Virus record (IMG/VR): IMGVR_UViG_3300037851_000542
Span: 1 to 64,000 of that record
Direction: 5' to 3' (one strand)
DNA length: 64,000 bases
Source: a virus
Lineage: Duplodnaviria > Caudoviricetes
The notes beneath the pieces are model-generated. The model did no database searches. It had not been told where the DNA came from and saw only the letters and a program-made list of their open reading frames with translations. Position numbers and translations under genes: made by a program. This document shows, one piece after another, positions 9,541 through 27,735 of this stretch; the stretch's first letter is position 1; each line of letters starts with the position of its first letter.

Positions 9541-9959
9541 ACTTTACCTTTATATTAGTTAAACCGTTTCTTTCCTCTTATAGTAACTATCGACTATAAA
9601 CCGGAATTACTATAGCTTTAGATCAAGGTAATACGAATTATTCGTATATTTTATTTCTAATATTGTAACATACTGAAAACACATAAAATTATATTTCATA
9701 GGTAATTCTATTAGATTGATAAATAATTCTTTACAGCATTAAAGCTACCAGGATTGATTCTAATTAGTTTTATGGTCTATTGATACAATGGTATAGACTC
9801 AATACCGATCATTCAATGGTAACAATCCTCAATAGAATCAATAGGTTATGTTGGCATAGTTTTTTATTTTGTATGGATATTGCATAGCTTTATTTAAAGC
9901 TAATTTTAAATAAAAATATAAGAGAATTCCCTAGGGAATTCTCTTATATATCACATATA

Positions 9960-10163
9960 CTAGTTTTTCTTATGTTCTATTATCTCAGTTAATAATTTAT
10001 ATATTCCAGCTATAGCTGGGTTCTTGTTACCTTTAATAATAGACTTTAAACTATTATCTTTCATCTCGATTAGTGTATCAATTGATAATCCCATAAATAC
10101 ATGACAAGTAACATCATCATTCTGAACTAGGGAATCAAATATATTGCTCATAGTAATCACCAT
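9960..10163 (-). CDS. hypothetical cassette protein
   Basis: ORF between promoter 10283 and hairpin 9916. Confidence 0.7.
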   Translation of the reverse strand: MVITMSNIFDSLVQNDDVTCHVFMGLSIDTLIEMKDNSLKSIIKGNKNPAIAGIYKLLTEIIEHKKN

Positions 10164-11280
10164 TAGTTAATTAGATACTTTTATAAGTTCTTTTTTACAA
10201 GTTATTAGGATTAAAATACATATAAACAATTTAATAGCGATCATCTTATTCCTTTATTTGGTATCTTTCCTCTTATAGTAATTATCGGACTAATCAAGAA
10301 TACTCTTTAGGTTATTATTTAAAAATAGGTGATTCTCTTAGGTCACGCCATTATAAAAATAAGGTATAATCCTTTTACCTAAGTGTTTGAAAGTCTTACA
10401 TAATATAAACTTAATAGAATCAGCTATTTATAAGCTATTAATATACTTACATAAAATTAACCATATGAAATAATTCACTAAAATTAAGTATATGACATAC
10501 TTAAGGAAATCTAAGTAATTGATATAATTGAATAAATTTAACTATATAATATGTTTAAACAAAGTTAAGTATCTGATTTAATTAAGAAAAGTTAAGTACT
10601 CGATCTCAGGTAGAAACTATAACTTTCTTGTAGCTTTATATAAAGATAGCTTTAAATAAAGGCAAACGGTCAACCAAACCTAGCCTTTTTCAAGGCTAGG
10701 TTTTTATCATTATAAATTATTATATGTATTCTAGCTTTGTATTAGAAACTAAGAAATACCCCTAGGGGTATTTCTTAGTACCTCCTATTACAGTATAAAT
10801 AGATTCTTAGGAATCTTCTTATAGTGCCTACCATTCTTTTCTACAAATACTCTTATCTTATTCTCAGGAGCATTCTTTTTCATTATGAGTGTAGTTAATC
10901 CTAAACTCATGACAGCCCCGAATATTAATCCTACTAATACAGATAATACTTCTAACATTGTTCATTCTCCTGTGTTAATTCTTCTGTGGTTACTAATAGT
11001 CCTCTTGATTCTAATACTTTGTAATGGTCTTGGATGTCTTGTTCGGTGATCTCACCTAGTGATTCTGTATATAATCCTCCTAGTTCTTCTATTGAGGGTC
11101 TCATATTTTGGTACTCCTTTTTTTGCCTTATGTATATACTATCGGATCTAATCGTAGATTACTTTAGTTTTATTTTTCTCTCTAGGTAATTTTCTTAGGT
11201 GCCCCAAAATTAAATCAGCTTTATATAAAGCTAAGTATGTAAGCTAAGAGAATCCCCTAGGGGATTCTCTTAGTGTTATC

Positions 11281-11502
11281 TTATTCCCAATATAGCTTTC
11301 CTGATACAGCACCTTTTACTTTAGTTAAACCACAATCTTTCATAAATTGTTCTTTCTGTTTCCTTTCTATTGCTTTGATTGCTTTCTTTCTTAGTTCTTT
11401 ATACTCCTTTGGTTGGTCTAGTTCGGTTACTATGGTTCCAGTAGTATTGATTCGAATTGATCTTTCTTTGGTTTCTTTGTTTTGAAGTAGTGTATATTTC
11501 AT
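11281..11502 (-). CDS. hypothetical cassette protein
   Basis: promoter 11536, GGAG SD, terminator 11244. Confidence 0.8.
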   Translation of the reverse strand: MKYTLLQNKETKERSIRINTTGTIVTELDQPKEYKELRKKAIKAIERKQKEQFMKDCGLTKVKGAVSGKLYWE

Positions 11503-11590
11503 TTTAATTACTCCTATTTTTTGCCCATATAAGTATATCGGATGATATACTTATAAACTTTAGATTGAAATTACTACCTAGGAAATATTA

Positions 11591-11890
11591 CTAGTTTATC
11601 TCTTTGTTCTCTTGTCTTCCAAAGATAACAGTAGCACAATCAATAATCAAAGTAGGCTCTATATTGGTTACTACTGAAACGAATATAGCAGGCTCAAAAC
11701 ATCTCTTTTTAAGGGTATTAAGATGCTCTTGAGAATGTATAACCATATTACAGGTGATGTTATTGTTTACTTCGACTATTACACTTCCTAGTTCATCGTT
11801 TATGAATTTAGTTATCATTCCATATATAGGATAAGTTTTTCCTAGTTCTGGTTTTTCTACTTGCGGGTTTAGTTGTAATTGGTTGTTCAT
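11591..11890 (-). CDS. hypothetical cassette protein
   Basis: promoter 11931, AGGAG SD. Confidence 0.8.
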   Translation of the reverse strand: MNNQLQLNPQVEKPELGKTYPIYGMITKFINDELGSVIVEVNNNITCNMVIHSQEHLNTLKKRCFEPAIFVSVVTNIEPTLIIDCATVIFGRQENKEIN

Positions 11891-12107
11891 TGTAGCACTC
11901 CTAATATGGGTTTTTTCCTCTTAGTAATAGTATCGGATCTAATCAGATAAATCTTTATATTAAAATAGCTCTGTCTAGGTATTTTTCTTAGTTGCCCCGA
12001 AATAAAATCTGCTTTATGTAAAGCTAGGCAGTTGGCACGAAGATTGCATAGCTTTATATAAAGCTATCACATAATTAAGAGAATCCCCTAGAGGATTCTC
12101 TTACTCT

Positions 12108-12305
12108 TTAAAGTATTTGTAAACAGTATGTAGTTAGTGGTACTAGGTTTTTTTCTAAGTGTTCAGAGTAAAAATCAATCTTTAATTCTAGTTTAACTAA
12201 TAATTTTTCTTCCTGTTCTGTTAGTCTTCTGTGTAGCATTGCATTGCATAACTCAGTATGCTTATCTAGTGCTTTCTTTAGTTTTAGTTCCGTTTTAGTT
12301 AGCAT
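12108..12305 (-). CDS. hypothetical coiled-coil protein
   Basis: 65-aa ORF, AAGGA SD. Confidence 0.7.
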   Translation of the reverse strand: MLTKTELKLKKALDKHTELCNAMLHRRLTEQEEKLLVKLELKIDFYSEHLEKNLVPLTTYCLQIL

Positions 12306-12321
12306 CCTTTACCTTATGTTT

Positions 12322-12615
12322 TTATCCTATTATTACTACTCCGTTAACCTTATCACCTTTCTTTAATTGTTTAGCTTTACACTGCTCAACAAAATCTAAA
12401 GGAAAGTCAAACGGTACCGCTCCATAACTAGGTGACAAGTGCATAAAATACTTTGCATTACTGCCTTTACTATTTAATACTCCTTTTCCTGTAATTGGAT
12501 CAAATTGACCTATAGACTTGTCAGATTGGACCGTGATAGTCCTATCACCATCATTAAAAGGATATACACTAAATTCTTGTGGTTTTCTCATATTGCCTAG
12601 TTTTGCAGTGATCAT
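12322..12615 (-). CDS. hypothetical phage protein
   Basis: promoter 12649, GGAGG SD. Confidence 0.8.
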   Translation of the reverse strand: MITAKLGNMRKPQEFSVYPFNDGDRTITVQSDKSIGQFDPITGKGVLNSKGSNAKYFMHLSPSYGAVPFDFPLDFVEQCKAKQLKKGDKVNGVVIIG

Positions 12616-12783
12616 ATTACCTCCATTGTATCTTGCCTTATATAAGTATATCGGAGTACTTTTAATTTATCTTTAGGTTAAAGTAATATGTTTACGAGTT
12701 TTTCTTACTTGCCCCAGAATTAAATTAGCTTTATATAAAGCTATCGTACAAATAAGAGAATCCCCTAGAGGATTCTCTTATTT

Positions 12784-13014
12784 CTAATCAATTAGTGAAC
12801 CTAGACTCAACTCTAACTTTAGATTACGAAAATCCTCTAGTAGGTCATAACTAGCAGTGTAATAATGTCCTGTAAAAGATGCCTCTATTAGTCTACCGTT
12901 CACGATCTTATATATCGTCGTGTTCCTGCCAAAATCTTCAAAGACGATATTTACTTCGTGAACTTCGTTAAACATAACTCTATCCAGACCTAATTGATGT
13001 TCCGTGTATGTCAT
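12784..13014 (-). CDS. hypothetical cassette protein
   Basis: promoter 13058, AGGAG SD; shares TIYKIVNGRL-type motif with 15608. Confidence 0.8.
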   Translation of the reverse strand: MTYTEHQLGLDRVMFNEVHEVNIVFEDFGRNTTIYKIVNGRLIEASFTGHYYTASYDLLEDFRNLKLELSLGSLID

Positions 13015-13224
13015 GTCTTTACTCCTGTTGAAGGTTATTTTCTACTCTCATATACACTATCGACGCATAATTAAGAATCCTTTAGACCAATCTTAAGATG
13101 CTACGAAAAACTCGTAGGCTACCGAATCTTGCTTAGCTTTATATAAAGCTAATTTATATCACGTTAGCTTTATATAAAGCTAACCTCTGCTAATTTAATT
13201 TTGGCGCAATAATTGCATAGCTTT

Positions 13225-13515
13225 TTATTGGTATATACTAAGAATAATTAACCAAGGTATAACAGCTAGTGAAAAGTAAACAGTATTCAAACATATAAAT
13301 ATAACTTTGTAATGCTTACATAAAATAAATATGGATATGCCACATAATAAAGCAAACAATTTTCCTATAATTAAAGCGTTTATAACTCCATATTGAACCA
13401 TTAAATAGCTCAATAATGGATTACCCTCACCTTGTATAGAATGAGTACTAACACCAATATACGTTAGTACTCCATCTAGGATCTGTAATATTATAAAGGT
13501 TATTAGTAGGTTCAT
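13225..13515 (-). CDS. small membrane protein (DUF5658-like)
   Basis: ILQILDGVLTYIGV...GEGNPLL pattern, 3 hydrophobic segments. Confidence 0.65.
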   Translation of the reverse strand: MNLLITFIILQILDGVLTYIGVSTHSIQGEGNPLLSYLMVQYGVINALIIGKLFALLCGISIFILCKHYKVIFICLNTVYFSLAVIPWLIILSIYQ

Positions 13516-13520
13516 ATAGT

Positions 13521-13766
13521 TTAACAGGTTACTAATGCTACTGCTAGTTTATCATCATCTAGTAGTTTTATGTATATGCTGGAAAAATATGTTTCACTTA
13601 TTACGCCATCAAAAAAATCATCTTTGAGGTACATAGCGTCATCAATATCAAACCATCTACCTTTTAACTCAAATCCTTCTACTAAATCTTTTGATGGATC
13701 TTCCTCATTCGGTCTAAATTCTACATCAACAACCTTTACATAGTGGATAGTTTGTTCATTGCTCAT
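13521..13766 (-). CDS. hypothetical acidic protein
   Basis: promoter 13800. Confidence 0.75.
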   Translation of the reverse strand: MSNEQTIHYVKVVDVEFRPNEEDPSKDLVEGFELKGRWFDIDDAMYLKDDFFDGVISETYFSSIYIKLLDDDKLAVALVTC

Positions 13767-14200
13767 AAATGTTACCTATGTTTTTTTGCCTATAGTAGTT
13801 ATCGGAACGAATCAAAGAATACTTTACACTTAAATCTTATTTCTAGGTAATTTTCTTAGTTGCGCCGAAATGTCTTAGCTTTATATAAAGCTGGCACAAG
13901 ACTTGCTTAGCTTTATATAAAGCTAAGCCGTTGGCACGATTCTTGCATTATGCATAACCTGTGCCATAAGTGAATCTATTAGAGTCTGGTAGAATCTATC
14001 AAAGTCCTATAGCTTTATATAAAGTCTTGCGCACGCGCACGGACAACTTTATATAAAGGTAGCTTTATATAAAGGCAAACGTGTAACCAAACCTAGCTTT
14101 ATATTAATATAGCTTTATATTATTGCAAAAACCTTAACCAAACCTAGCTTTATATTAGAGTCTAAGAAATACCCCTAGGGGTATTTCTTAGTAGTTTACT

Positions 14201-15031
14201 TTAGTATACAAATCCTAAACTTTCAATATCTTTTCTGAATTCAGCCATTAGAGCAGGTAAACGATCAAGTAATAGTTTTGTTAATTCCTCTTTAGGTAAT
14301 GATAATTGTTCGTCGGTAGCATCCGGCCAAATTCCGGTATTTCTAGCCTTATCTAGTTCTCTTTCTTTTCCTTCACTGAAGGAAGTAGCTACTTTGATTA
14401 TTTCAAAATCATTTTTAACAAATTCATCCCAAATTAAAGGATTCTTAGAAGTATCACCATAAAAATCTAAAGCAAAAGGGCATTCATGCCATTTTGTTGT
14501 GTAACCTTCTGGCGATAACTTACTAGAAAAATTGCTAGGGTTATCTTTACCATAAGGAACTTCTACTAGCTTTATATTAGATAAGTATCCTCTATTTTCT
14601 TCAATCCATTTTATAAATGATTTGGAGTAGTTAGTAAATGGCACATTAAAGTTATTAAACTTAACAGCATATTCAAAGGATGATGGTTCACCTTTAGATC
14701 TTCCCCAACAATCCTTATCACCAGCCAAATAAACCGTATTATTAACATAATACATAGGCTGATCGGAACTACAGAGATGCCATTTGATTAAATGAGCATA
14801 TTCAGGAAAATGTTCTTGTATTTGATCGTGTATACATCCTCCTGAACCTTCACGCCATCTACCACGATCTAAGTATTCGGTTTCTCCTGTAATAGCAAAG
14901 GTATTGTGTTTATTATTGCATTCGTCATCATACCTAATTTTTACTCTGATTCTTTCTGTACCTTCATTGAATAGCTTCCAATCAGATTGAATAACTTGTT
15001 TCTTAGTTAATATGCTTTCTGGTAGTGACAT
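14201..15031 (-). CDS. conserved hypothetical phage protein (276 aa)
   Basis: long clean ORF, promoter 15075, terminator 14162. Confidence 0.85.
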   Translation of the reverse strand: MSLPESILTKKQVIQSDWKLFNEGTERIRVKIRYDDECNNKHNTFAITGETEYLDRGRWREGSGGCIHDQIQEHFPEYAHLIKWHLCSSDQPMYYVNNTVYLAGDKDCWGRSKGEPSSFEYAVKFNNFNVPFTNYSKSFIKWIEENRGYLSNIKLVEVPYGKDNPSNFSSKLSPEGYTTKWHECPFALDFYGDTSKNPLIWDEFVKNDFEIIKVATSFSEGKERELDKARNTGIWPDATDEQLSLPKEELTKLLLDRLPALMAEFRKDIESLGFVY

Positions 15032-15250
15032 CTTTTTATTCCTTATTAAAAGGTTTTTTTCCTCTTATATTAACTATCGGTATTATATTCAGAATGCTTT
15101 AGATTGATTTGTTCTTTCTAGGTATTTTTCCTACTTGCCCCGCATCAAACCTGCTTTATATAAAGCAGGTTTATGGTAACTGAGCTTTATATAAAGCTCA
15201 GTATATAAGCTAAAAGAATCCCCTAGGGGATTCTTTTAGTTTGTTAAAAT

Positions 15251-15535
15251 TTAATTTGCAGTAAAGGATCTACTTTCAGGAGTATTAATAACAATAGGAT
15301 CAAAGTCATGTAATTGTGTTTCTCCTGTTAATGATTGTATCTTACTTGCAAATAATCTGGATACTCTATGTTGATTAACCCATTCAGTACCTTTATTGTT
15401 TTCATTAGCTAATTGCCACAATCTTTCCGTAATAGCAGAAAAGGATCTTACTACACCACTAAGATTACAAGCATTCTGAACCTGTATTGCTTCATTTATT
15501 AGTTCACTTTCTGAATAATTAGTATATCGTGACAT
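15251..15535 (-). CDS. hypothetical cassette protein
   Basis: promoter 15574, GGAG SD, terminator 15210. Confidence 0.8.
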   Translation of the reverse strand: MSRYTNYSESELINEAIQVQNACNLSGVVRSFSAITERLWQLANENNKGTEWVNQHRVSRLFASKIQSLTGETQLHDFDPIVINTPESRSFTAN

Positions 15536-15607
15536 GTTATATTCTCCTATATAATTTTTCCTACTAAATAAACTATCGGCACAATTTAAAATAAACTTTA
15601 GGTTAAT

Positions 15608-15997
15608 TTATCGGTAAAGATTAGAATACTGTGAATCTTTTAATTTTGCTTTTAAGTCTTCTACTACATAACCAATATGACTAGTAAATTTTGCTGATAC
15701 TAGTCTATCATTTATTACCTCATAGATAAGAGTATGGGGAAACTTTTTACCAAAGGTAAGAAATACTCTTAAGTGTTTTTTGTTTGCCGTATAAAAATAA
15801 ATGTTATTATTGTGATCTGTATACTTCCATGTTTCATTGACTTTATGGTGTAAATTTATAATAGCGTTTAATGCTTTGATTCTAGATTGTGTTAATTTAC
15901 TTTCATTATTGGCTTCACTTTTTTTACAATCTTCTAAATGCTTTTCTAAGTCAGCCAATTTTTTAAATAGTCTTATTTCTTTAGTAGTAGTATTCAT
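15608..15997 (-). CDS. hypothetical cassette protein
   Basis: promoter 16032. Confidence 0.8.
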   Translation of the reverse strand: MNTTTKEIRLFKKLADLEKHLEDCKKSEANNESKLTQSRIKALNAIINLHHKVNETWKYTDHNNNIYFYTANKKHLRVFLTFGKKFPHTLIYEVINDRLVSAKFTSHIGYVVEDLKAKLKDSQYSNLYR

Positions 15998-16604
15998 ATG
16001 ATTACCTTCTATTTGTTTGCCTATAGTAGTCTATCGGTTCAATAAATAATAATCTTTAGTTTAAAATTAAAATCTAGGTAAATTTCTTAGTCCTTCTCGA
16101 ACAATGCCTAGCTTTATATAAAGCTAGGAAGCTGGCACGAATCTTGTTTGACTTTATCATAATAACATTGTATACTTATTTTGTTGGGGTGAATATACTC
16201 ACTTCGATCAGGACGGACGGGACTGTAGGACTTGCCCTTAGAAACCCCTATTTTCGGATAGCGGGAGTAGTCACATAAAGTGAGCTTTATATAAAGATGG
16301 CTTTATATAAGCGCCATATATAGCCATACCTTGCTTTATATAAAGTTGGCTTTACCTAATTGCAAAATAGACCACCAAACTTAGCTTTATATTAAAATCT
16401 ATTAGATACCCCTAGGGGTATCTAATAGATATGTTATTACTTTTTATCCTTTAACATACAAATTAAACCATTACCTACCCATATAGTTTTATAACCTAGT
16501 GATTTAGCTTTCATATAGTAACTAATATACCTGTTATTTATGATTATCTCATTCCTATTAGATGAATTTCTATATACTTTTTTCACTTTTATTACTCCTG
16601 TTTT

Positions 16605-17138
16605 TTACAATATACTTTCTCTAATGTCATAAAATACCATATCGGGTATAGGTCGATCTCTATTTGTTCTAGAACTAAATATGCTTAGTCCTAAATTACT
16701 ACATATTTCTATTCTATCCCGTTGATTTAAAACCTCGTACCAATATTTATTAATTTCGTTATATTCGGCTTCAGAAATGGCATCTTCATTATACAGTGGA
16801 TAATTCTCTAATGCGCCCAAAATTTCATATACTTTATTTAATACTACCTCACTTGTTTGCTTATGTACTAGTATGGTTTCTATCCAACCTACTGCCCAAT
16901 GATTAGCCTGTATTGATTGAATCATAGGTTCATTACTATCTAACATTGAAACTGTTTCTTCAGTTAGTTTTTCTAAATCCCTTAAGATGCATTCAAAGTT
17001 TACATTAGTATATAATTTGCTATCTCTATGCCTACCATATACCTCAATATAATCATAGAATGTAGGACCAAAGTAGGAATCTGGTAATTTCCAAAAGTTA
17101 TCTGATAGTGCTTCCAAGTTAGTGTTATGTCCTACCAT
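16605..17138 (-). CDS. conserved hypothetical phage protein
   Basis: HWAVGWIETILV motif; promoter 17180, GAGG SD. Confidence 0.8.
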   Translation of the reverse strand: MVGHNTNLEALSDNFWKLPDSYFGPTFYDYIEVYGRHRDSKLYTNVNFECILRDLEKLTEETVSMLDSNEPMIQSIQANHWAVGWIETILVHKQTSEVVLNKVYEILGALENYPLYNEDAISEAEYNEINKYWYEVLNQRDRIEICSNLGLSIFSSRTNRDRPIPDMVFYDIRESIL

Positions 17139-17380
17139 TTTTTATTACCTCTTATGTTTTGTTTTTCCCTATATATGTATATCGGATCTAATCGTAATAA
17201 TCTTTAGACTAGAATTATATTACTAGGTAATTTTCTTAGGTGCGCCAAAATAAAACTGGCTTTGTACAAAGCTTTGCAATCGGCGTGCCAGCTTCGTAGC
17301 TTTATATAAAGCTACGTTTATAAAAAAAGATGCCGGTGCAGAACCTCACCGGCTAGGTTTTTATAGAGTAGGAGTATTAA

Positions 17381-17629
17381 CTATGAGGTAGGATTTAAAT
17401 TATTTAATCTTCTTTCTAAGTTAGAACATTGAGGTTCAAATTGTTTAATTTCTTGTTCAAATATGTATCTTATTTTAGAAACATTTTTAGTCTCTTTATA
17501 AAACCTGTAAGGTGAAACATAATTTAGTTGAGGATGCTTGATATATAACCAACCTAAATCACCATTGTAATACTCTTTTACATCATTACAAAGGTTATCG
17601 AATAATTTGCTGTTTATTTTATCTGACAT
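17381..17629 (-). CDS. hypothetical cassette protein
   Basis: promoter 17664, GGAG SD. Confidence 0.75.
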   Translation of the reverse strand: MSDKINSKLFDNLCNDVKEYYNGDLGWLYIKHPQLNYVSPYRFYKETKNVSKIRYIFEQEIKQFEPQCSNLERRLNNLNPTS

Positions 17630-17693
17630 ATTTCTTACTCCTATGTTTTTCCCTATATATGTTTATCGGCGGTAATTGAATTAAACTTTAGAA

Positions 17694-18092
17694 CTAATTT
17701 ACTTTATTTGTAAGTTTTGCGATCTCCTTTAAATGATTAGCAGGTGAATACTCATTTTTAGGTTCAAACGTTTTACCCTTTCTCAGGTCTTGTATATAGT
17801 TTTTAGGTAATGTAATATCAAAGTAATGGTTTAATCTCCTATGATCTCCTTTACAATCTTCAATTGTAATAGGTCTCATATTATTATTAGGCTCAGGAAA
17901 GATACTATCAAACTCTAATTGTAAAGTTTTAAGTTCAGAGCAGGTACCGTTAAATGTTATGTTTATTACAGTTCTAGATTGACCACAAGTGTTAAAATCA
18001 GTAAACTTGTTTATAATATGTCCTTTACTTTTAAGGAAGTTTATAGCGTTGTTTCTTTCCTCTATAGTGGTTTCAAAGTTATCACGTATCAT
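17694..18092 (-). CDS. hypothetical cassette protein
   Basis: promoter 18132, AGGAG SD. Confidence 0.8.
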   Translation of the reverse strand: MIRDNFETTIEERNNAINFLKSKGHIINKFTDFNTCGQSRTVINITFNGTCSELKTLQLEFDSIFPEPNNNMRPITIEDCKGDHRRLNHYFDITLPKNYIQDLRKGKTFEPKNEYSPANHLKEIAKLTNKVN

Positions 18093-18444
18093 ATTAAACT
18101 CCTTAAGTTATTTTATTCCGCCTATGTATTCTATCGTCACTTGATTATATAAACTTTAGTTTAAAATAAAAGTCTAAGAGTTTTTCTTACTATGCTTTAT
18201 ATCAAGTAGCTTTATCTAAAGCTGAGGTTTTTAAAAGTACCGGATCTGTAAAATCAGATCCGCCTAGCTAGATTAACTCTCTTGTGATTCCTTTATAGCA
18301 TTTTTCTTTTGATTAGTCCTAGTCCTGTTCCTTTTTGTTCTCTTATCTTGCATAGAGGTATTACGGCAAGCCATAGTATTATTAGGGTCTATTCTATCTT
18401 TATAGTTGTTTTTCTTTTTTGTCATAATACTCCTATAGTATACA

Positions 18445-18768
18445 CTAACTTTTATCGGCGTTTGATACTCTTACCCCAAAATTAACGACATCTCTAAGAT
18501 TTTGGGCTGTTATTTTCCAAGATGGCTCATATCCGCATAAATCTAAACCGCTATCCTCTTCTGCTGCCTCTATAAGTGTAGAAAGGTAGTATCTTGCTAC
18601 AAATTGCCCACGTCCCATATCAAAAGAATGTCTTGTATCGTAAAATTCAATAACTGGTTCCTCTTTATCATGTGTCAGACAATCTTCTAAACCGTATGGA
18701 CTGCCCTTAACTAAAACTCTTACATTGAAGGTTATTCCTTGATTGTTAGTTACTTGAATCATATACAC
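18445..18768 (-). CDS. conserved hypothetical phage protein
   Basis: EPVIEFYDTRH...GQFVARYYLSTL motif; promoter 18796. Confidence 0.8.
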   Translation of the reverse strand: MYMIQVTNNQGITFNVRVLVKGSPYGLEDCLTHDKEEPVIEFYDTRHSFDMGRGQFVARYYLSTLIEAAEEDSGLDLCGYEPSWKITAQNLRDVVNFGVRVSNADKS

Positions 18769-19277
18769 CCTATAGTTGTTTGCCTATATAATAACTATCG
18801 GCTTGTTTATATATTATCTTTAGGTTAAAATTTATATATGCAAGTTTTTCTTAGTAGTCCCAGAAATAAACTAGCTTTATATAAAGCGTAGCGTTATATA
18901 AAGCTAGGCGAGCGGCTTTATATAAAGCTAAGCTTTATATAAGCGTCACACGTAGCCATACCTTGCTTTATGTAAAGTCAGCTTAAAATGATCGCAAAAT
19001 AGGCAGCCAAACCTTAGTTTAAGTTATAAATTAAAAAATAGCACTAGAGGGTAGTTTTAGCTTTATATAAAGCAAGATCGTATTTAAAAAAGGTGCCGGA
19101 GGCGAAAACCTCTCCGGCTAGGTTAGGAGGAACTATGATATGCTTAAAGAAAAAAGAGGATACAGGAAAATAAATCTAATGATTAAGGAGGTAATAAACT
19201 GAGATACTATGCTTATTTACTTTCCTCTACCCTCTATATAATATATCGTCACGTTTGTTAAATTACTTTAGTCTTTT

Positions 19278-19571
19278 TTAATAATTATTAATATTTATTT
19301 TTGCCTGCTCTAAACTTTCTATACCCTTTTCTAAGGTCTCAATTTCTCCTGTAAAGGTTTTATCTCCACTAATAGGGTTAGTCACGTACTTAGCTTGTCT
19401 AATAGCAAATACCCTTGTATTATCCTCAAAGCATTTCTTTTCTGAGGTAATAAAAGTACCATTACTAAACAGTTTACTTTCTACTTTTGAAGCGAAAAAC
19501 CTCATAGTATCAAGATCAAAGAAGTGATGTCCAATATCTTTATTAAGTTTTTTTATTTCCTGTATATTCAT
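19278..19571 (-). CDS. conserved hypothetical phage protein
   Basis: GHHFFDLDTMRFFASKV motif. Confidence 0.8.
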   Translation of the reverse strand: MNIQEIKKLNKDIGHHFFDLDTMRFFASKVESKLFSNGTFITSEKKCFEDNTRVFAIRQAKYVTNPISGDKTFTGEIETLEKGIESLEQAKININNY

Positions 19572-19573
19572 TT

Positions 19574-19774
19574 TTAATTATCCTCTTTTATTTCATAAAC
19601 TCCCCAAGTATCAATATCTTGGGTATCAATATATTCAAATAAGATATCGTCGGAACCGTCTTCAAGTTTATTATTGGCTAATTCTATAGCCTGTTCTACT
19701 GACTCGGCTTCCACTTCAAATATTTTAAGCCATCTTTCGTGTACATTAACATGATACTTTTTTTTAGTAGTCAT
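19574..19774 (-). CDS. DpnD/PcfM-like small protein
   Basis: YHVNVHE...FEVEAESVEQAIELA pattern; promoter 19810. Confidence 0.6.
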   Translation of the reverse strand: MTTKKKYHVNVHERWLKIFEVEAESVEQAIELANNKLEDGSDDILFEYIDTQDIDTWGVYEIKEDN

Positions 19775-19967
19775 TTTTTTAATCTCCTATAATTTACCTT
19801 CTAATATTATATCGGCGAGTTTATAGTTTATCTTTAGATTGATTTATTATTTCTAAGTAAATTTCTTATTTGCTCCAGAGCATATGTTAGCTTTATATAG
19901 AGTTAGCTTTATATAAAGCAGGTATATAGGACTAAGAGAATCCCGTAGGGGATTCTCTTAGTTTGGT

Positions 19968-20189
19968 TTAACCTACTAATTGATTTAACTGTGATTGGTC
20001 TACTAATGTTTTTGGATTGCTTCCAACCCAAGAATTTATATGCCTAGTTGTTGTCTTAGTGTAGTATGTATTGGTAACAAAGTATCCTTGATTAGGTATA
20101 TACACGGCTACAGGAGTACTATAACTATACAAAACAATCATACCTTTGATATGTACCTCAGTTTTATTTTTTGCTAAACTTTTAATCAT
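19968..20189 (-). CDS. small phage protein, paralog of 22177
   Basis: shared SLAKNKT...LYSYSTPVA...KTT.RHINSWV. Confidence 0.8.
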   Translation of the reverse strand: MIKSLAKNKTEVHIKGMIVLYSYSTPVAVYIPNQGYFVTNTYYTKTTTRHINSWVGSNPKTLVDQSQLNQLVG

Positions 20190-20425
20190 TTGGATTGACT
20201 CGCTGGACTATTTACAACACTAGGAGCAACAATTTCACCAATAAAGTTTATTAATCCTTCTATACCTTCAATATCTTCTTTTAAAAGTTCTTCGGCATCT
20301 TCATCACTTATGAAGTGTATAAGATCATTTTTTAGCCTGATTTGTACCTCTATTAAAGTATTCAATTGTTTTTCTAATAGATCTAAGTCTACATTTTTAA
20401 TTGTAATATCTTTTGTATTGCTCAT
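20186..20425 (-). CDS. hypothetical protein
   Basis: promoter 20463, GGAG SD. Confidence 0.75.
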   Translation of the reverse strand: MSNTKDITIKNVDLDLLEKQLNTLIEVQIRLKNDLIHFISDEDAEELLKEDIEGIEGLINFIGEIVAPSVVNSPASQSK

Positions 20426-20637
20426 CTTAGTAACTCCCTAAATAATTTACCTTCTAATATTATATCGGCTTGATCAATAATTATCTTTAGGTTAATTACG
20501 TGTTCTAATAGTTTTTCTTAGATTAATATTAAATAAAGGTAGCTTTATATAAAGCTACCTTTATTTAAAGCTAGATTTATATAAAGTTAGTATACTGAGA
20601 CTAAGAGAATCCCGTAGGGGATTCTCTTAGGTGTTTA

Positions 20638-21387
20638 TTATTCTTTTGTAAATAGTTCTAATAGTATCCTACCCTCTTGTAATGCCCTATCAATACCAAA
20701 GAAACCCCAACATGATTCTAAGATTTCATCTTCAGTATGATGACATGAGTTACAAGTATTAGTCTTAGTCACAACAAAACCATAAACATCACCTTCTAGG
20801 TATTTTGCATAAGTCTTAACTTCATTATTAAGGTATTCTAGTATTTGTTCCTTTGATTTATCCTTTAATCCTTCAGATTCAATCTTTGATTTGGTAACAT
20901 ATATCCAGCCTACTTGACCACTATCCCGACCGCAACTAAACCCACTTGTGTTCATTGTAATACCACCATGCTCATATGCATGTAGGTTTAAGTATATTAC
21001 ACTATCAGGAAGATCCGTAACTGTTTGTATGCGTTCTACCGTAGTTTCAAACAATAAGTTTATAGACCGATCATAACTATGTTCTAGGATTTCCCTGTAT
21101 TGACTTATATTACCTTTACAAGTGTTAAGAATAAAATCTAGTTTTTCTTGTTCAGTAGCCTCACTTTCCCATATATCTATTAGAAAAGATTCAGGTTCTT
21201 TATAATTGTGTTTGTCTCCTAACCTATAACCCCTATGAAAGCATATCATTGTTCCTAGGTTATCCCATTCTCTAGGCGACATGGGACAATCATCATTAAG
21301 TATTTCAAGTTTATACCCGTTTTTTACTTCTTTGTGTATTACATATGATGACATAATTATTACCTCTATAATAGTTTTTCTACTCAC
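20638..21387 (-). CDS. conserved hypothetical phage protein (~240 aa)
   Basis: SPREWDNLGTMICFH...HGGITM...SGQVGWIY...YLEGDVYGF...ESCWGFFG; start probably about 21355. Confidence 0.85.
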   Translation of the reverse strand: MSRKTIIEVIIMSSYVIHKEVKNGYKLEILNDDCPMSPREWDNLGTMICFHRGYRLGDKHNYKEPESFLIDIWESEATEQEKLDFILNTCKGNISQYREILEHSYDRSINLLFETTVERIQTVTDLPDSVIYLNLHAYEHGGITMNTSGFSCGRDSGQVGWIYVTKSKIESEGLKDKSKEQILEYLNNEVKTYAKYLEGDVYGFVVTKTNTCNSCHHTEDEILESCWGFFGIDRALQEGRILLELFTKE

Positions 21388-21451
21388 ATTAATATTATCG
21401 GCTACAATATGAATAATCTTTAGGTTAAAATTATAGGTCTAGGTGTTTTTC

Positions 21452-21940
21452 TTATCCACCTCTATTACCTCTATATTCTTTTTCTACTTTAGTCTGTAAT
21501 AATCCTTTTTTATATACTATTTTTCCCTGAAACGCTTGCCCGCTTTCATAGTAACTCAGTTTAATATCTACTAAAGGGAATTTTAAAGCCAATTCTTCAA
21601 TAACCGGTTCTGGCGGTGACCAAGCCGTTAGAAAAGAAACTAAAACTCTTTTTTGTATTCTTTTAGTAGTCGGTAAATTTTCCAGCTGTATTTCGTAAGC
21701 GTTCCATTTGGTACCCCAATTCTCTACACACCAATTATACCCACCAGAATTAAAACCGCTACCCTCTTTTATTTTATCGGCTTCCAAATACCTGGAAGGA
21801 TAAGGAATCAATGTATTAAAATCAAAAATAGACTCACTAGTTTTAATACAATCTAAAACCTTTTGAACATCTTCTATTTTACCTTGAATTAAAAGATCAT
21901 TTTCTACGTGATTAGGCATCCTTTTCTCCCTATGAAACAC
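21452..21940 (-). CDS. DUF1281/YubB ferredoxin-like family protein
   Basis: MPNHVENDL...NWCVENWGTKWNA...FLTAWSPP motifs. Confidence 0.75.
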   Translation of the reverse strand: MFHREKRMPNHVENDLLIQGKIEDVQKVLDCIKTSESIFDFNTLIPYPSRYLEADKIKEGSGFNSGGYNWCVENWGTKWNAYEIQLENLPTTKRIQKRVLVSFLTAWSPPEPVIEELALKFPLVDIKLSYYESGQAFQGKIVYKKGLLQTKVEKEYRGNRGG

Positions 21941-22176
21941 AAATTTAAAATTCTTTTCCTAGTATAATTATCGGACGTATTATCAATTAACTTTAGATTG
22001 AATTATAGGTTTAGGTGTTTTTCTTAGTAATCCCAAAACCAATGTTGGCTTTATATAAAGCTGGAAAGTTGGTATGATTTATGCATAGCTTTATATTAAG
22101 CTACTTTATATAAAGCTATTGGATAAATAAAAATTGCCGTAGTCGGAACCCCTACGGCTAGGTTTATGTTTAAAGG

Positions 22177-22413
22177 TTATAGAAAACTATGTATTACTGA
22201 ATCCGATACGTGTCTTTGGTTGACTAAAGGAGTTACCCAAGAATTTATGTGACGTTTTGTCGTTTTAGAGTAGTTTAAATAATCTTTGGATATTAGGTAT
22301 TCTCCCTTGGTAAAAATTGCTACTGGTGTTGAATAAGAATATAATATTTTAGTTCCATCTAGCTTATAAATTACTGTTTTATTTTTTGCTAAACTTTCAA
22401 GTCTTTGCATCAA
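22177..22413 (-). CDS. small phage protein, paralog of 19968
   Basis: SLAKNKT...LYSYSTPVA...KTTKRHINSWV. Confidence 0.8.
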   Translation of the reverse strand: MMQRLESLAKNKTVIYKLDGTKILYSYSTPVAIFTKGEYLISKDYLNYSKTTKRHINSWVTPLVNQRHVSDSVIHSFL

Positions 22414-22661
22414 TGTAATTCCTCATCAAATAAAATAGTTACCGGTTTTTCTATATTAGTTATTTTTATATTCTTAGTCTCCAATTCATTTATAAAGTTT
22501 CTTAACTCATCTCTATATAAGGTAAGGGCTTCACCTTGTATACTTTTATCTGTATTATTAAATTTAGTGAATACAATACTAGTTCTATCGGTATCAGACA
22601 GAACTAATCCTATTAGGTTGTTATTTTCATCCTTAATAGTTTTCTTTATATGTCTTTCCAT
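22410..22661 (-). CDS. hypothetical protein
   Basis: ATGA-coupled to 22177. Confidence 0.7.
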   Translation of the reverse strand: MERHIKKTIKDENNNLIGLVLSDTDRTSIVFTKFNNTDKSIQGEALTLYRDELRNFINELETKNIKITNIEKPVTILFDEELH

Positions 22662-22666
22662 ATTGT

Positions 22667-22972
22667 TTAATCTCTATAGTGTATGCAGTTTCTAACTACT
22701 TCCCAATTGATCCCTACTTCTGAGTCGTGATTATCTTTTAAATCACATAAAACAGCAAAGGCTTGGTCATCCGTTAAATTTGTATCCATTTCTTGAGCTT
22801 CCATCTTTATATCTTCTATAGACCACATCAATGCAATTTGGCTAGTAGGATCAAATTTTAGAACATCTTTTGGAAAAAGCTCTAACAGTTTTTTAACTTC
22901 CTCTATTGTTGGGTTTTCACTATCTACGAATTCTTGTAATGTTTTCATCTTATTTACTCTTATTTTTACCAC
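22667..22972 (-). CDS. conserved hypothetical phage protein
   Basis: WSIEDI...LTDDQAFAVL...HDSEVGINWEV motif; promoter 22981. Confidence 0.75.
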   Translation of the reverse strand: MVKIRVNKMKTLQEFVDSENPTIEEVKKLLELFPKDVLKFDPTSQIALMWSIEDIKMEAQEMDTNLTDDQAFAVLCDLKDNHDSEVGINWEVVRNCIHYRD

Positions 22973-23015
22973 TAATTATTTATCGGCATTATTATAAAAT
23001 AACTTTAGGTTAAAA

Positions 23016-23291
23016 CTAAATATCTATAAAATATAGGTCTTGATCAGTATAAGGCAATGGTTCTACTACTTCTACAAAGTCCCAACATTTAGGTTGATAC
23101 ATTGTAGCTATATCTTCCCTTGCCTCTTGTTCATTTTTAAATTTACCTTCAATTATATCATCTCCTACAGTTATTTGGTTTGATTGAACATCATAAACTA
23201 TTAGTGCTCTTAAATAGTGTGGTATGTCTTCCGTATTACCAATGTTAATGCTACCTATAATTACTTTTTCCATAATTAAATTCCTATTCAA
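23016..23291 (-). CDS. hypothetical protein
   Basis: ORF in cassette. Confidence 0.7.
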   Translation of the reverse strand: MNRNLIMEKVIIGSINIGNTEDIPHYLRALIVYDVQSNQITVGDDIIEGKFKNEQEAREDIATMYQPKCWDFVEVVEPLPYTDQDLYFIDI

Positions 23292-23496
23292 AGTCTATGT
23301 TTATTGCCTTTGTCCATATACCATCTAAAAGAATATGTAATCCGAATTCATCATCTTCACAAGTATCATCTGCTTTAGTCTCAAATAATCTAGAATCCTC
23401 AGTACTGATAAATCTTCCATCTTCTAAAGGTAACCATAGATCTTGACCTGTTAAATCTTTTCTTACCTTCACAGTATGCTTTACAGTATTATTCAT
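23284..23496 (-). CDS. hypothetical protein
   Basis: promoter 23542. Confidence 0.75.
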   Translation of the reverse strand: MNNTVKHTVKVRKDLTGQDLWLPLEDGRFISTEDSRLFETKADDTCEDDEFGLHILLDGIWTKAINIDFE

Positions 23497-23770
23497 ATTG
23501 GTACCTTTATTTAAGATAGCTTATTTGCCTTCTAATAATAGTATCGTCATTGTTATAAATAATCTTTAAACTAAAATTGTAGTACTAGGTAAATCTATTA
23601 GGTGCGCCGAAATTAAAAGTAGCTTTATATAAAGTTGCTTTATAGCAAGCTAGCTTTATATAAAGCCAGCTTGATGGCACGAATCTTGCTTAGCTTTATA
23701 TAAAGCTACCACACGACTTTATATAAAGCGTAGCTTTATATAAAGTTATAACACAGCTTGATATAAAGTT

Positions 23771-23835
23771 GATCGAACGATCAACCGATCAAAAGATCTA
23801 ATGATCATTTGGGAAACTCACAACCAAACCTAGGC
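23771..23835. repeat. GATC ladder copy 1 (5 GATC at 8-bp period) plus CCAAACCTAGG
   Basis: GATC at 23771, 23779, 23787, 23795, 23803. Confidence 0.9.
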
Positions 23836-24039
23836 TTTTTATTATAATGCGGTTTTAGTTTATTATTTTATTTTTGGGGCACTATATGAAAATGAAACTA
23901 TAAAAAGGCACCCACCCCTTTTACCTATAATGTAATAATATGATCGCTAATCTTATAATATATTCAAAATATGATCGCTAAAGTTATTATATATGAATAT
24001 TTCTGACGCTAAAACATTCATATATAACAAAATAAATCG

Positions 24040-24351
24040 CTAACCTATATCCTTAGTTAAGAACCAATTCCTGTCATACATATCCTGAGTAAATATAATT
24101 TTCTTTAGGTCTGTCTTATCAAATACTGACTCAGTAAGATCTAGGTCTGAAGTAATAGAACTCAATTGATAGTATTGCTTCTCTTGATTTCTATACCTGT
24201 ACTTGTTTACTCCAACTACTTTAGTATTATAAATCGCGGCAAAAGATTCATCCTCCTGATTAGGATCAGCCTTAAGTTTAACATATAAAGTATAGTTACC
24301 TCTGAGTTCGATATTATTTATATCTATAATAGCAAGGTCTTGTTCTGACAT
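24040..24351 (-). CDS. hypothetical protein, paralog-like to 24376
   Basis: YTLYV...YDRNWFLTKD versus YTLHV...YGKTWWLVKD. Confidence 0.75.
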   Translation of the reverse strand: MSEQDLAIIDINNIELRGNYTLYVKLKADPNQEDESFAAIYNTKVVGVNKYRYRNQEKQYYQLSSITSDLDLTESVFDKTDLKKIIFTQDMYDRNWFLTKDIG

Positions 24352-24375
24352 GTCATACTCCTTTATAAAATAAAA

Positions 24376-24600
24376 TTAATCTTTTACTAGCCACCAAGTT
24401 TTACCATAATTCTCTGGTGTGAAAGCAAGATCACATACATCTACTTGTACTGCAATCTTATCGCCACACTTTGAGTCAAAATAAAAATTAGAACTTACCT
24501 TATTATCCAGTTTTACTTCTTTTGCTATACCTTGCACCTCCGTATGAGATACATGTAAGGTATATTCATCTTCCTTGTTCAGGTCTTCCAGTTTAATCAT
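24376..24600 (-). CDS. hypothetical protein
   Basis: promoter 24637. Confidence 0.75.
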   Translation of the reverse strand: MIKLEDLNKEDEYTLHVSHTEVQGIAKEVKLDNKVSSNFYFDSKCGDKIAVQVDVCDLAFTPENYGKTWWLVKD

Positions 24601-24660
24601 AGCTTAATATCCCTTATAGCTTAGCCACTAAATAACTATCGGCGCAGTAAGTAAATAACT

Positions 24661-24948
24661 TTAGATTAAAAATACTAATTTATCTGAATCCAGTAGTATT
24701 GCTGTGTGTATATTTGTAAATTTTGGCGTCGGTGTGGTTTGAACCTGCAACTCCATATAGAAATCGTCCAGAGCAGTAATTTTTCCGGCGACCCAAATAA
24801 AACCGTCTGACTTTCTTTTGATTAGACAAGAAGTACCAACCAAAGTAATACCATTACCAAGCATCCTTAAAAGCCTATCTGTATGAGTACCTTCAAATAT
24901 ATCCTCAAAACTAGGAAGATTAGTATTTATCATATAAAGAAGAACCAC
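24661..24948 (-). CDS. small protein with C-terminal tail
   Basis: ends LVFLI*; stop lies inside the next -35 box. Confidence 0.75.
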   Translation of the reverse strand: MVLLYMINTNLPSFEDIFEGTHTDRLLRMLGNGITLVGTSCLIKRKSDGFIWVAGKITALDDFYMELQVQTTPTPKFTNIHTAILLDSDKLVFLI

Positions 24949-25196
24949 TGAGTATTAGTAGAATCTTTGTGAAAAAAGAAATCCTGTGTCATATAAGAAA
25001 CAATTTTTGTTTTTACGTCCGCATACTTAATTGACCAATCTTGCTCATTATTATCAGTACCCTTAGATACTATTACCCAAGTCTTATTTAATCCTAAATG
25101 ATCGGGGCTATATAAAACTTTAGGTACTTTTATAAAAGTATTTCCATTGTTAAATATAGCCTTTAGTTTATCTTGATTAGTAGGTTTAGTTATCAT
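24930..25196 (-). CDS. small protein with C-terminal tail
   Basis: ends WFFFI*; promoter 25232. Confidence 0.75.
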   Translation of the reverse strand: MITKPTNQDKLKAIFNNGNTFIKVPKVLYSPDHLGLNKTWVIVSKGTDNNEQDWSIKYADVKTKIVSYMTQDFFFHKDSTNTQWFFFI

Positions 25197-25427
25197 CTAG
25201 GTTGATAGTCTCCATAAAAGTATAACATAGGTATCGGCACATACTTAAGATAACTTTAGATATATTTTACTGACCCAGCTTTATATAAAGCGTAGCTTTA
25301 TATAAAGCCCTAGGTTGGTATGATTTATGCATAGCTTTATATCAAGCTGAGCTTGATATAAAGCACCCTTTATTTAAAGCTAGATTTATATAAAGCTAAA
25401 TTAAAATACATAGCTTTATATAAAGTC

Positions 25428-25491
25428 GATCAGCAGATCAAACGATCAAAAGATCTAATGATCATTTGGGAAATTGATCACCAAACCTAGG
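25428..25491. repeat. GATC ladder copy 2
   Basis: GATC at 25428, 25436, 25444, 25452, 25460 and 25476. Confidence 0.9.
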
Positions 25492-25834
25492 CTTTTTAGC
25501 AATTGATTTTTTAATCTATAAATTACTTATTTGGTAACCTGTGGAAGATTATAATTTATAAATAGACCCCACCCTATTGATTTTAAACCTAGTTTAAACT
25601 TTCATTAATTAATGAAAGTTCCTGTAAAAATAGGGTCACTATGGGATAGTTATTTTAGGCTAAAGTTATTTAATATTTAAGTCGTATTATTTATATCAAA
25701 ATTAAAGTATATAATTATATAGACAAACTTTAGATTAAAATAGAGTAGAATAGTAGTATATTTAGTGTGATATATAAATAAACTTTAGATTAAAAACAGG
25801 TTAAAAGTGCTACTATGGGACGGAGAATAAAGAC

Positions 25835-26158
25835 TTAAATTAAAAACTGATAATTATATAACTTATAACCTAAACATAAAAACCATTCTAATTTGGTAAC
25901 ACCACTACCATTACTATAAAAAACAGGATGGTGATGTTTAAGATCTAAGTCTACTGGAGAAACACTATAACTAATATTATAATTAATTCTAGAGGTAATA
26001 GATCTAAGTGTAACAGTTTTAGTAATGATTACAAGACGAAACTGGGGTTTATGACCTATTTCAAATAAGGTTAGCAAAGTAATACTAGATTTATTTCTAA
26101 GTAATCGTTTTATATCTTTTGAGGTTAGTGGAAAAGAATAAGGCTTCTTAGGCGTCAT
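25835..26158 (-). CDS. small protein with C-terminal tail
   Basis: ends YQFLI*. Confidence 0.7.
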   Translation of the reverse strand: MTPKKPYSFPLTSKDIKRLLRNKSSITLLTLFEIGHKPQFRLVIITKTVTLRSITSRINYNISYSVSPVDLDLKHHHPVFYSNGSGVTKLEWFLCLGYKLYNYQFLI

Positions 26159-26256
26159 AATAACAGGTTTTTAGTGAAAATTACCCAACCTATTTATTAG
26201 AGACTAGTCTCTAATAAGAAGATCAGTATTTTTATTAAATATTTTCCTTAAAATAA

Positions 26257-26577
26257 TCAAATCAGGTAGAAAAATAAATGACTTTCTATGTTATCCTTGT
26301 ACATAAATATATTTTCGGGCTTTGTAAACTCATTTCTTGCCTCTAATTTCCATACATTACCATAAACAGAAGACCCCTGAGTAATAGGAATACACCTAAA
26401 AGCATTAAAAGAGTTAAAATAAGTTTTAGTAAGCCTGTCTTTAGGCACACACACCATAAACATATTTATACTTCTATGCAGTGCTTTATTTTTATCTATA
26501 ACCCCTTTGTGGTCGCTGCGTAAAAAACGTAATAACTTCTGATAAGATTTTAAAAACTCACCATTAACACTAGTCAT
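26257..26577 (-). CDS. small protein with C-terminal tail
   Basis: ends LFFYLI*. Confidence 0.75.
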   Translation of the reverse strand: MTSVNGEFLKSYQKLLRFLRSDHKGVIDKNKALHRSINMFMVCVPKDRLTKTYFNSFNAFRCIPITQGSSVYGNVWKLEARNEFTKPENIFMYKDNIESHLFFYLI

Positions 26578-27608
26578 TAGGTCCTTTGATTATTTCATAT
26601 AAAATAATACCAACTAGTACTGCAATTATAGTTAATCCAAAGCAAAAGTGGGGTAAAAATTCCATAATACTATTCCTCGTCGTCATCACTAAGATAAACT
26701 ACATAGATAGAGATTGTTAATAATATACCAATAAATACAAAAAGACCTAAGAGAAATTCTAAAAGAAGTGCCATAAACTACCTATGATAACAATTAAATT
26801 TCAATGATAAACAGTATCCTTATTTGACCTTTTACTTATTATTTTCTTGTTCTATAATCACCGCATCAATATTTTTTAAGATAGCAAAAAACTCCGCATA
26901 TAAGTCTTTTCTTGCCTTGCTTTCCTCTAGCGCTTTTCTTTCTAGCTCTAGTCTCTCGGTCTCTTTTTTAAGAACAAAACTCTTATAATCCAAATATAAT
27001 CCTCAAGCAGCCCATATACCTACACATAAACCAACAAAATAAAAAACAACTCCAAACAAAGTCATAAACAAATACCTATAATAAAAATTAAATTTCGGGG
27101 CAAAATAGATTTATTTCTTTGATTAGTCCCAAAAGATCTCCTTTAAAAAAGGAAACACAGCAACCCCAATAGAAACAAAAACAATACCCAATAATACATT
27201 CTCTAACATAAACTGTCCATTAAAAAATAAAGTTATATAGATCCTATCGGCAGATTACTAGGATTACTTTAGTGTTATTTATGCAGGAAAGGTACTTTGT
27301 CTAGGGCTTTATATAAAGCGCCGAGCTTTATATAAAGCTAGAAGTCCTAGGATGGATTGTAAGAGCTTAAAATGCCTAGGTTAATAGTAGAGAGTGGGTA
27401 AGCAAGAAAAGCCCGTTAAGGGCTTTTCTTGGCTGCTGTAAATTAAATCTAGGTTTACATTAATTATGTGTATTTAAATAAGTTTACACAGTGTGCTACC
27501 CGTAGGGGTATAATATAGGTTTAACCTAGGGTATTATATAAATATTAATTAAGTATTAATTCTAATTTAATTAAATATTAGCTAGAGGTATAATAAACCT
27601 TAACACAA

Positions 27609-27735
27609 GAAGGAAAGCAAGCTTTCCTTCTCTCCTACCTCTGACGAGGAAAGCAAGCTTTCCCTAGCTACCCTTAGCCTAGGAAAAGCAAGCTTTTCCT
27701 TACCCTTCCTAGGGGGTAAAAAGCAAGCTTTTTAC
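27609..27735. repeat. four phased hairpins, core AAAGC-AA-GCTTT
   Basis: inverted repeats at 27609-27630, 27648-27663, 27681-27700, 27716-27735; centres 35-36 bp apart. Confidence 0.9.

Follow-up and report, generated by a model that had tools for sequence, protein, structure and literature searches.

A many-copy 16-bp palindrome as a candidate operator array in the early-gene cassettes of a giant freshwater phage

The 16-bp palindrome AGCTTTATATAAAGCT, which recurs in one region of the genome of an uncultured freshwater phage of about 260 kb (giant phage class), has its closest described counterparts in repeats of other phages and of a plasmid. The DNA analyzed here is the first 64 kb (the window, meaning that whole stretch) of the 259,994-bp virus record IMGVR_UViG_3300037851_000542, with a GC content of about 30%, and the remainder of the record was used for comparison. 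Cluster A mycobacteriophages carry stoperators, about 30 asymmetric 13-bp repressor sites (the repressor being gp71 in L5) that are spread genome-wide, oriented with transcription, and block elongation. Plasmid RK2 carries 12 OB operators for KorB, a plasmid-encoded protein of the ParB family that acts beside a promoter or at a distance from it. In the T4-type phages RB49 and phi1, about 50 intergenic copies of the PeSL (promoter-early stem-loop) cassette place a terminator stem-loop and a host-type early promoter before small genes of unknown function, and recombination shuffles these genes (Arbiol et al. 2010, PMC2839356). The SPBRE element of SPbeta, a predicted operator, was shown by chromatin affinity purification sequencing (ChAP-seq) and gel shift to be bound by the master repressor MrpR/YopR, a recombinase-like repressor that lacks a classical helix-turn-helix (HTH) fold (PMC10516654).

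As in the PeSL system, the phage studied here has a stem-loop and an early promoter repeated between small genes of variable regions, and its relatives differ by whole cassettes; unlike PeSL, which has sigma-70 promoters and no separate, strictly conserved palindrome, it uses a FliA-type promoter and adds to the block one to seven palindromes, a second conserved element and sigma-54-type boxes. With SPBRE it has in common a short conserved element at the promoters of numerous functionally uncharacterised phage genes, and the SPbeta precedent shows that the fold of a regulator of this kind can come as a surprise. SPBRE, however, comprises about 10 sites that serve the upkeep of lysogeny in a temperate phage, whereas here there are 54 sites in stacks of up to seven, no integrase was found, and the palindromes lie upstream of the core promoters. 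Like stoperators, the palindromes far outnumber the promoters and occupy the intergenic DNA of one phage, but they are symmetric, lie within 7% of the genome and fall outside its transcribed parts. The OB operators of KorB likewise repeat one palindrome of about 16 bp at many promoters of a mobile genome and are a case in which an excess of sites and promoter control coexist; the sequences are unrelated to ours, and the phage has no ParB-family protein above threshold. Phage control of this kind is already known, and the architecture is new. The array is real, under selection and tied to promoters, and the cassette system around it shuffles genes as well. Our preferred explanation, to which we give somewhat better than an even chance, is that the palindromes serve as operators, bound on DNA by a symmetric dimeric protein that regulates the early cassettes.

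Exact copies of AGCTTTATATAAAGCT number 13 in the window, where shuffled sequences predict 0.00, and 45 copies are present with up to two mismatches (0.14 expected). When 0, 1, 2 or 3 mismatches are allowed, the whole genome holds 13, 31, 46 and 64 copies, and the interval between 9.6 and 27.4 kb holds 13, 31, 45 and 54. The motif is not equally common elsewhere: all 31 copies with at most one mismatch lie in 9.9-27.3 kb and none in the remaining 240 kb, every one of the 34 occurrences of the 12-bp core CTTTATATAAAG is within the palindrome region, and the 10 matches outside 9.6-27.4 kb at up to three mismatches are background. A first-pass annotation, made from the letters of the window, had reported about 50 copies in a single region, all of them intergenic and often stacked at a pitch of 15-17 bp with up to seven per gap. 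Our counts bear this out, with 54 copies at up to three mismatches, grouped in 20 intergenic clusters of one to seven. All 54 are intergenic in an interval (9541-27400) whose intergenic share is 38.6% (0.386^54 = 5e-23). The commonest pitches from copy to copy are 16 bp (8 times), 17 bp (5), 40 bp (4) and 15 bp (2), those of 15-17 bp corresponding to abutting sites, and the two stacks of seven occupy 23621-23770 and 25277-25427. The longer palindromes pointed out at 15181-15200 and 17295-17316 are real. The boundaries needed adjustment: the array had been placed within 10.6-27.4 kb, but near-copies already occur at 9614 and 9886, and the statement that no full copy lies outside the region holds with the qualification of a single two-mismatch copy at 251006. 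The extent of the array and one stack are as follows.

9614-27339, unstranded: domain with all 54 copies of AGCTTTATATAAAGCT, in 20 intergenic clusters among leftward (minus-strand) small-gene cassettes
20541-20588, unstranded: three abutting copies at 16-bp pitch

The genes between 9 and 27 kb are all small and all on the minus strand. Read in minus-strand order, the longer gaps between them contain the upstream stop codon, a GC-rich hairpin (CTAAGAGAATCCCCTAGGGGATTCTCTTAG or a canonical terminator), about 12 nt, one to seven palindromes, a second conserved element (tYGGgGCAMcTAAGAAAAWtaCCTAGa), a promoter, a ribosome-binding site (RBS) and the ATG, while the short gaps contain TAAAG-N16-CCGATA alone. 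This last motif is of the sigma-28 (FliA) promoter type, and its strict matches number 44 genome-wide, 23 of them on the minus strand of the palindrome region. The hairpin and the sigma-28-type promoter are found in about 13 blocks around unrelated small genes, and terminator-like sites predicted from the sequence number 17 against 6.8 expected. The spacers within the block have diverged, leaving three islands of conservation: palindrome, second element and promoter boxes. The 21 sigma-28-type promoters found elsewhere in the genome have neither palindrome nor second element, and therefore the block is a separate promoter class; the second element and the block hairpin are also restricted to the palindrome region. 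One canonical block and the end of the array illustrate the arrangement.

11105-11280, minus strand: canonical block, with hairpin 11243-11274, palindrome 11217-11232, second element CTAAGAAAATTACCTAG at 11182-11198, promoter 11140-11166 (TAAAG-N16-CCGATA), RBS and ATG at 11104
27305-27339, unstranded: last two copies, upstream of the sigma-28-type promoter 27245-27271 and beside the strand-switch region

Of the 23 sigma-28-type promoters in the region, 14 have a palindrome at a fixed distance, with its centre 78.5-81.5 nt upstream of the first C in CCGATA. Since transcription from FliA promoters starts about 12 nt after that C, the centre would lie at about -92 from the predicted start, a position typical of upstream activators. 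Among all copies the nearest centre to any CCGATA is 47.5 nt away, and the core promoter is never overlapped. The promoters linked to palindromes also differ in their -35 region, with TAAAGTT in 2 of 14 against 21 of 30 simple promoters (p = 0.0009), and this poorer extended -35 would fit dependence on an upstream activator. The only sigma factor of the phage (78288-79259) scores 19 bits where the FliA-family cut-off is 189.6, so that the host sigma-28 polymerase is the likelier reader of these promoters and, judged from their sequence, probably reads them. The N16 spacing is that of the Bdellovibrio attack-phase promoters, TTAAG-N16-CCGATA (PMC3627812), and FliA-type promoters with this spacing hint at a Bdellovibrio-like host. 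Sigma-70 promoters built from the palindrome were also considered and were rejected, as sigma-70-like matches (71) are fewer than the 100.7 expected from shuffles.

The palindrome has properties expected of a site that is read on duplex DNA. Its positions 2-14 (GCTTTATATAAAG) are 91-100% conserved, G and C positions included, which argues for base-specific reading and not mere AT-richness, and this conserved core is preceded by T and followed by A in 59-70% of copies. Changes that preserve a stem, as expected for REP/BIME-type elements or RNA hairpins, are rare among the variants, in which symmetry is broken 66 times and compensated twice. The palindromes follow the upstream terminator and precede the downstream promoter and would therefore be mostly untranscribed, and a search of Rfam returned sub-threshold chance matches only. 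Together, the broken symmetry, the placement between terminator and promoter and the Rfam result favour a duplex-DNA site for a symmetric protein; the earlier suggestion of hairpins in small RNAs loses ground on the first two of these counts.

The conservation of the array was assessed in relatives. Homologues of three early proteins in a large protein collection are 77-84% identical, and the relatives' contigs (L299 and L301-L304, from at least four other samples) have the gene order and the block of the window and, at corresponding positions, its 16-mer. In seven aligned orthologous gaps, 7.3% of palindrome columns are substituted against 15.4% of the other intergenic columns (Fisher p = 1e-6), and copy number among the relatives changes by insertion or deletion of whole units. 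The cassettes themselves are also variable. In L299 the palindrome equivalent to 19059-19074 is joined directly to the promoter of gene 17694-18092, leaving that relative without two genes and four palindromes at this one locus; the gene list of a third relative is intermediate. L299 also lacks the 66-aa gene 19574-19774, and its corresponding promoter block leads straight into the DUF7447 gene, a precise gain or loss of a single gene. Given these whole-cassette differences, the blocks are also places of cassette gain and loss.

18873-19074, unstranded: five-copy cluster, whose palindrome 19059-19074 is the cassette gain/loss junction in relative L299

Farther afield the array was not encountered. 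A megablast of 10-28 kb against GenBank phages gave no match, and the terminase has relatives of 27% identity in GenBank and of 43-47% in IMG/VR, the latter on fragments without the motif. Distant IMG/VR homologues of two early proteins (L160-L184) have no comparable palindrome and all but one lack TAAAG-N16-CCGATA, and the 276-aa protein has homologues at 49% identity (L305-L307) in unrelated phages of 52 kb. A paired-palindrome search found nothing in IMG/VR and 14 matches in the prokaryote genomes of the species collection, none with the AGCTTTATATAAAGCT 16-mer. The many-copy palindrome matches in metagenomes, among those listed, belong to a 12-bp satellite repeat that is probably eukaryotic and were set aside as noise; the promoter block of the phage is absent from the metagenome loci among the matches listed.

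If the palindromes are operators, one symmetric, probably dimeric, sequence-specific protein would bind them on double-stranded DNA and would jointly control the leftward early-gene cassettes through their roughly 14 complex promoters, each cassette carrying the reusable block of terminator hairpin, one to seven palindromes, second element and FliA-type promoter. An intergenic repeat in promoter regions, at a fixed distance from the promoter and conserved above its surroundings, is what was found. The protein would boost or license the promoters rather than shut them off by looping or coating; we lean to activation over repression of that kind, if only slightly, because the centre lies at about -92, the core is not overlapped and the extended -35 is weaker. 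Extra copies would load more protein cooperatively and would cover an opposite-facing sigma-54-type box. From the excess of copies over what simple repression needs, the first-pass annotation had argued for a role outside transcription, an argument that is weakened by the fixed register with 14 of the 23 promoters and by copies that bracket the sigma-54-type boxes.

Several observations weigh against the operator explanation. From a site centred at about -92, a protein cannot repress by simply occluding the promoter, up to seven copies exceed what one promoter needs, and the weaker extended -35 may merely reflect the common descent of duplicated blocks. The general idea of a protein-binding array on DNA fits the data, but no candidate binder came out of the Pfam and family scans. 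None of the 38 proteins encoded in the region has a DNA-binding Pfam domain, and family scans of the genome (HTH_3, HTH_8, Sigma54_activat, Sigma54_DBD, ParB_N, HU and integrase) gave no regulator, their only returns being a homing endonuclease with an HTH, an IS607 remnant, RuvB and a weak ParB_N match (14.9-16 bits at best, cut-off 26.3); HU and integrase were not found in them. Finally, two symmetric double changes (15152 and 17258) are compatible with hairpin or cruciform effects, as are the complementary flanks of one orthologous pair, cgt/acg in the window and ccat/atgg in L299.

Other repeats stand near the array. The strand-switch gap at 27877-27999 holds four copies of CTAGAAAAATACTAG in both orientations, a sequence that resembles the second element (CTAAGAAAAATACCTAG) and one arm of the terminator hairpin and that may be a second repeated binding site. 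In 27609-27735, the gap where gene orientation flips, four hairpins have a common AAAGC-AA-GCTTT apex, whose AAAGC and GCTTT half-motifs also occur in the palindrome. Ladders of GATC at 8-bp spacing (23771-23803 and 25428-25460) lie beside both seven-copy stacks and are followed by CCAAACCTAGG; in relative L304 the ladder is present but shorter by one or two units.

The alternative explanations concern, above all, the sigma-54-type boxes. With up to one mismatch allowed, the window contains 10 matches to TGGCAC-N5-TTGC where 1.08 are expected, and 8 of the 10 adjoin palindromes in a composite layout of palindrome, 7 nt, TGGCACnnnnnTTGCW, 1-2 nt and palindrome, which explains the 40-bp pitch. 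The -24 GG and -12 GC elements of the boxes are at canonical sigma-54 spacing, and the flanking palindromes are centred at about -41 and -1. Six of the eight palindrome-adjoining boxes are on the plus strand, back to back with a sigma-28-type promoter, and two weaker plus-strand sigma-54-like boxes lie at 22070 and 25316. The units and clusters with such boxes are listed here.

12010-12065, plus strand: composite unit, with palindrome 12010-12025, 7 nt, box TGGCACGAAGATTGC at 12033-12047 and palindrome 12050-12065; the box faces away from the minus-strand genes
13877-14110, unstranded: six-copy cluster, with plus-strand boxes 13892-13906 and 13932-13946 and an inverted minus-strand box 13952-13966; conserved in L301 and L302
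16110-16147, plus strand: palindrome 16110-16125, then sigma-54-type box 16133-16147, with TTGT for TTGC (L301 has TTGC)
17258-17313, minus strand: composite unit of opposite orientation, with palindrome 17298-17313, gene-strand box 17276-17290 and degenerate palindrome 17258-17273 (symmetric double change); in the orthologous unit the box is kept in L299 and absent in L301
22047-22117, unstranded: three copies, with weak sigma-54-like box TGGTATGATTTATGCA at 22070-22085 between the first two
23621-23770, unstranded: seven-copy stack with sigma-54-type box 23675-23689 inside and a GATC ladder next to it; orthologue in L304
25277-25427, unstranded: seven-copy stack with weak sigma-54-like box 25316-25331; its nearest copy is the one centred 47.5 nt upstream of CCGATA

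We consider it unlikely that these palindrome/box/palindrome units are working sigma-54-dependent promoters, with the palindrome serving as enhancer site and AT-rich melting region. Such promoters would fire mostly antisense to the early cassettes, and antisense or short hairpin-ended RNAs would switch the early genes off. At the same low probability, the operator array could be combined with such promoters. The excess and fixed layout of the boxes speak for this explanation, and so does their conservation, since relatives keep TGGCAC and TTGC and change the five intervening bases; an orthologous box is nevertheless lost in L301, and another has the essential GG changed to AG in L304. The start of a sigma-54 promoter is counted from the -12 element and is predicted here to fall in the centre of the downstream palindrome, and several of the downstream hairpins score as plus-strand terminators. 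The palindromes resemble sigma-54 upstream activating sequences in their association with the boxes. The usual place of a sigma-54 enhancer is 80-150 bp upstream of its box, whereas these palindromes abut or overlap the box region, at positions (about -41 and -1) that are not usual for enhancers and where a bound protein would clash with polymerase. Scans of the phage for the Sigma54_activat, Sigma54_DBD and HTH_8 families found no sigma-54 and no enhancer-binding ATPase, the AAA+ match being RuvB; no more than about 10 of the 54 copies have a box beside them, and the DNA downstream yielded no target RNA, coding or structured. Just as unlikely, in our estimate, is an arrangement that ties the early cassettes to sigma-28 and sigma-54 alike, the two flagellar sigma factors of a swimming host. 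Sigma-28 promoters would then drive the genes, the composite units would be sigma-54 promoters or polymerase traps that fire in the opposite direction, and the palindrome binder, as enhancer factor or gatekeeper, would flip between the two; if true, it would mean that a phage carries a sigma-54 regulon and switches from early to later genes in a new way.

Four IMG/VR contigs from unrelated phages with 37-44% GC (L241, L188, L202 and L236) each have several perfect TGGCAC-N5-TTGC boxes, back to back or in tandem with TAAAG-N16-CCGATA, and have short repeated motifs of their own; these back-to-back boxes count in favour of sigma-54 promoters, and the use of sigma-54-type promoters by phages may extend past this genome. 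In the window, a GC-richer non-coding stretch of about 130 nt (16150-16285) lies between palindromes, downstream of the box at 16133, and is highly conserved in L301; its folding is no better than that of shuffles on either strand (z = -0.78 and +0.51).

A purely recombinational explanation, in which the repeats are the recombination points of mobile regulatory cassettes (like PeSL or REP/BIME) with no dedicated binder, seems to us improbable. It agrees with the repetition of the whole block about 13 times around unrelated small genes, with the whole-cassette differences among relatives, the L299 junction at a palindrome and the unit-wise change of copy number, and PeSL cassettes of T4-type phages behave likewise (PMC2839356). 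Recombination, however, needs similarity only, and leaves unexplained why 13 of the 16 positions are held at 91-100% while the spacers drift, why the distance to the promoter is fixed and why the substitution rate is halved. Recombination and operator roles are not mutually exclusive.

We are still more doubtful of a decoy role, in which the array would titrate a DNA-binding protein of the host, such as a regulator or a nucleoid protein, instead of governing the phage promoters beside it. The many high-quality copies in a short region and the lack of a recognisable phage-encoded binder are in keeping with a decoy, which would need neither a promoter register nor placement between terminator and promoter; moreover, no prokaryote genome in the species collection has paired copies of the 16-mer. 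A decoy for restriction enzymes is unlikely because AGCT occurs at close to its expected frequency in the rest of the genome (observed/expected 0.95). Other short sites are scarce in the genome outside 9-28 kb, with GGCC seen 6 times against 198.5 expected and observed/expected ratios of 0.24 for CATG and 0.41 for CGCG, which suggests pressure from host restriction enzymes.

There is very little likelihood that the array is a centromere or DNA-organising element (parS/ParB, parC/ParR or KorB-like), a kind of role that the first-pass annotation had proposed among others. Such an element would position or compact the phage DNA, perhaps through an actin-like system. A many-copy 16-bp palindrome resembles parS and the KorB operators, and the phage does encode an actin-like protein with an adaptor at 202200-203841. 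That pair, however, is about 175 kb from the array with no palindrome near it, whereas in parC/ParR systems the repeats adjoin the operon; the adaptor has no DNA-binding Pfam match, the family scans found no ParB (the ParB_N match being under its cut-off), classical HTH or HU, and the sites are locked to promoter elements. The proposal that the array protects the first-injected DNA gains no support either: genome positions 1-163 recur at 259832-259994 (162 of 163 identical) in a record that IMG/VR lists as linear, so that either the assembly is circularly closed or the contig carries a short repeat at its termini, and with ends that overlap by 163 nt its coordinate origin is arbitrary. Least probable of all is a structural role for the palindromes, either as hairpins within small RNAs or untranslated parts of transcripts or as cruciforms extruded from the DNA: perfect self-complementarity, the two symmetric double changes and the complementary flank swap are set against copies that lie after the terminator and at least 40 nt before CCGATA, 66 broken pairs to two compensated, a weak AT-rich stem of 6-7 bp and nothing meaningful in Rfam.

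Should the operator explanation hold, a single protein would control about 14 transcription units, which encode some 35 small proteins of unknown function. The early cassettes are the probable host-takeover set of this giant phage and seemingly start from flagellar-type (FliA) promoters; because their spacing matches that of the Bdellovibrio attack-phase promoters (PMC3627812), the block may show how a non-growing, swimming cell is taken over. The array is a ready bait for the regulator and offers a compact set of parts: terminator, operator and promoter. The sigma-54-type boxes here, together with the paired boxes on contigs of other phages, prompt the question, little explored so far, of whether phages use sigma-54.

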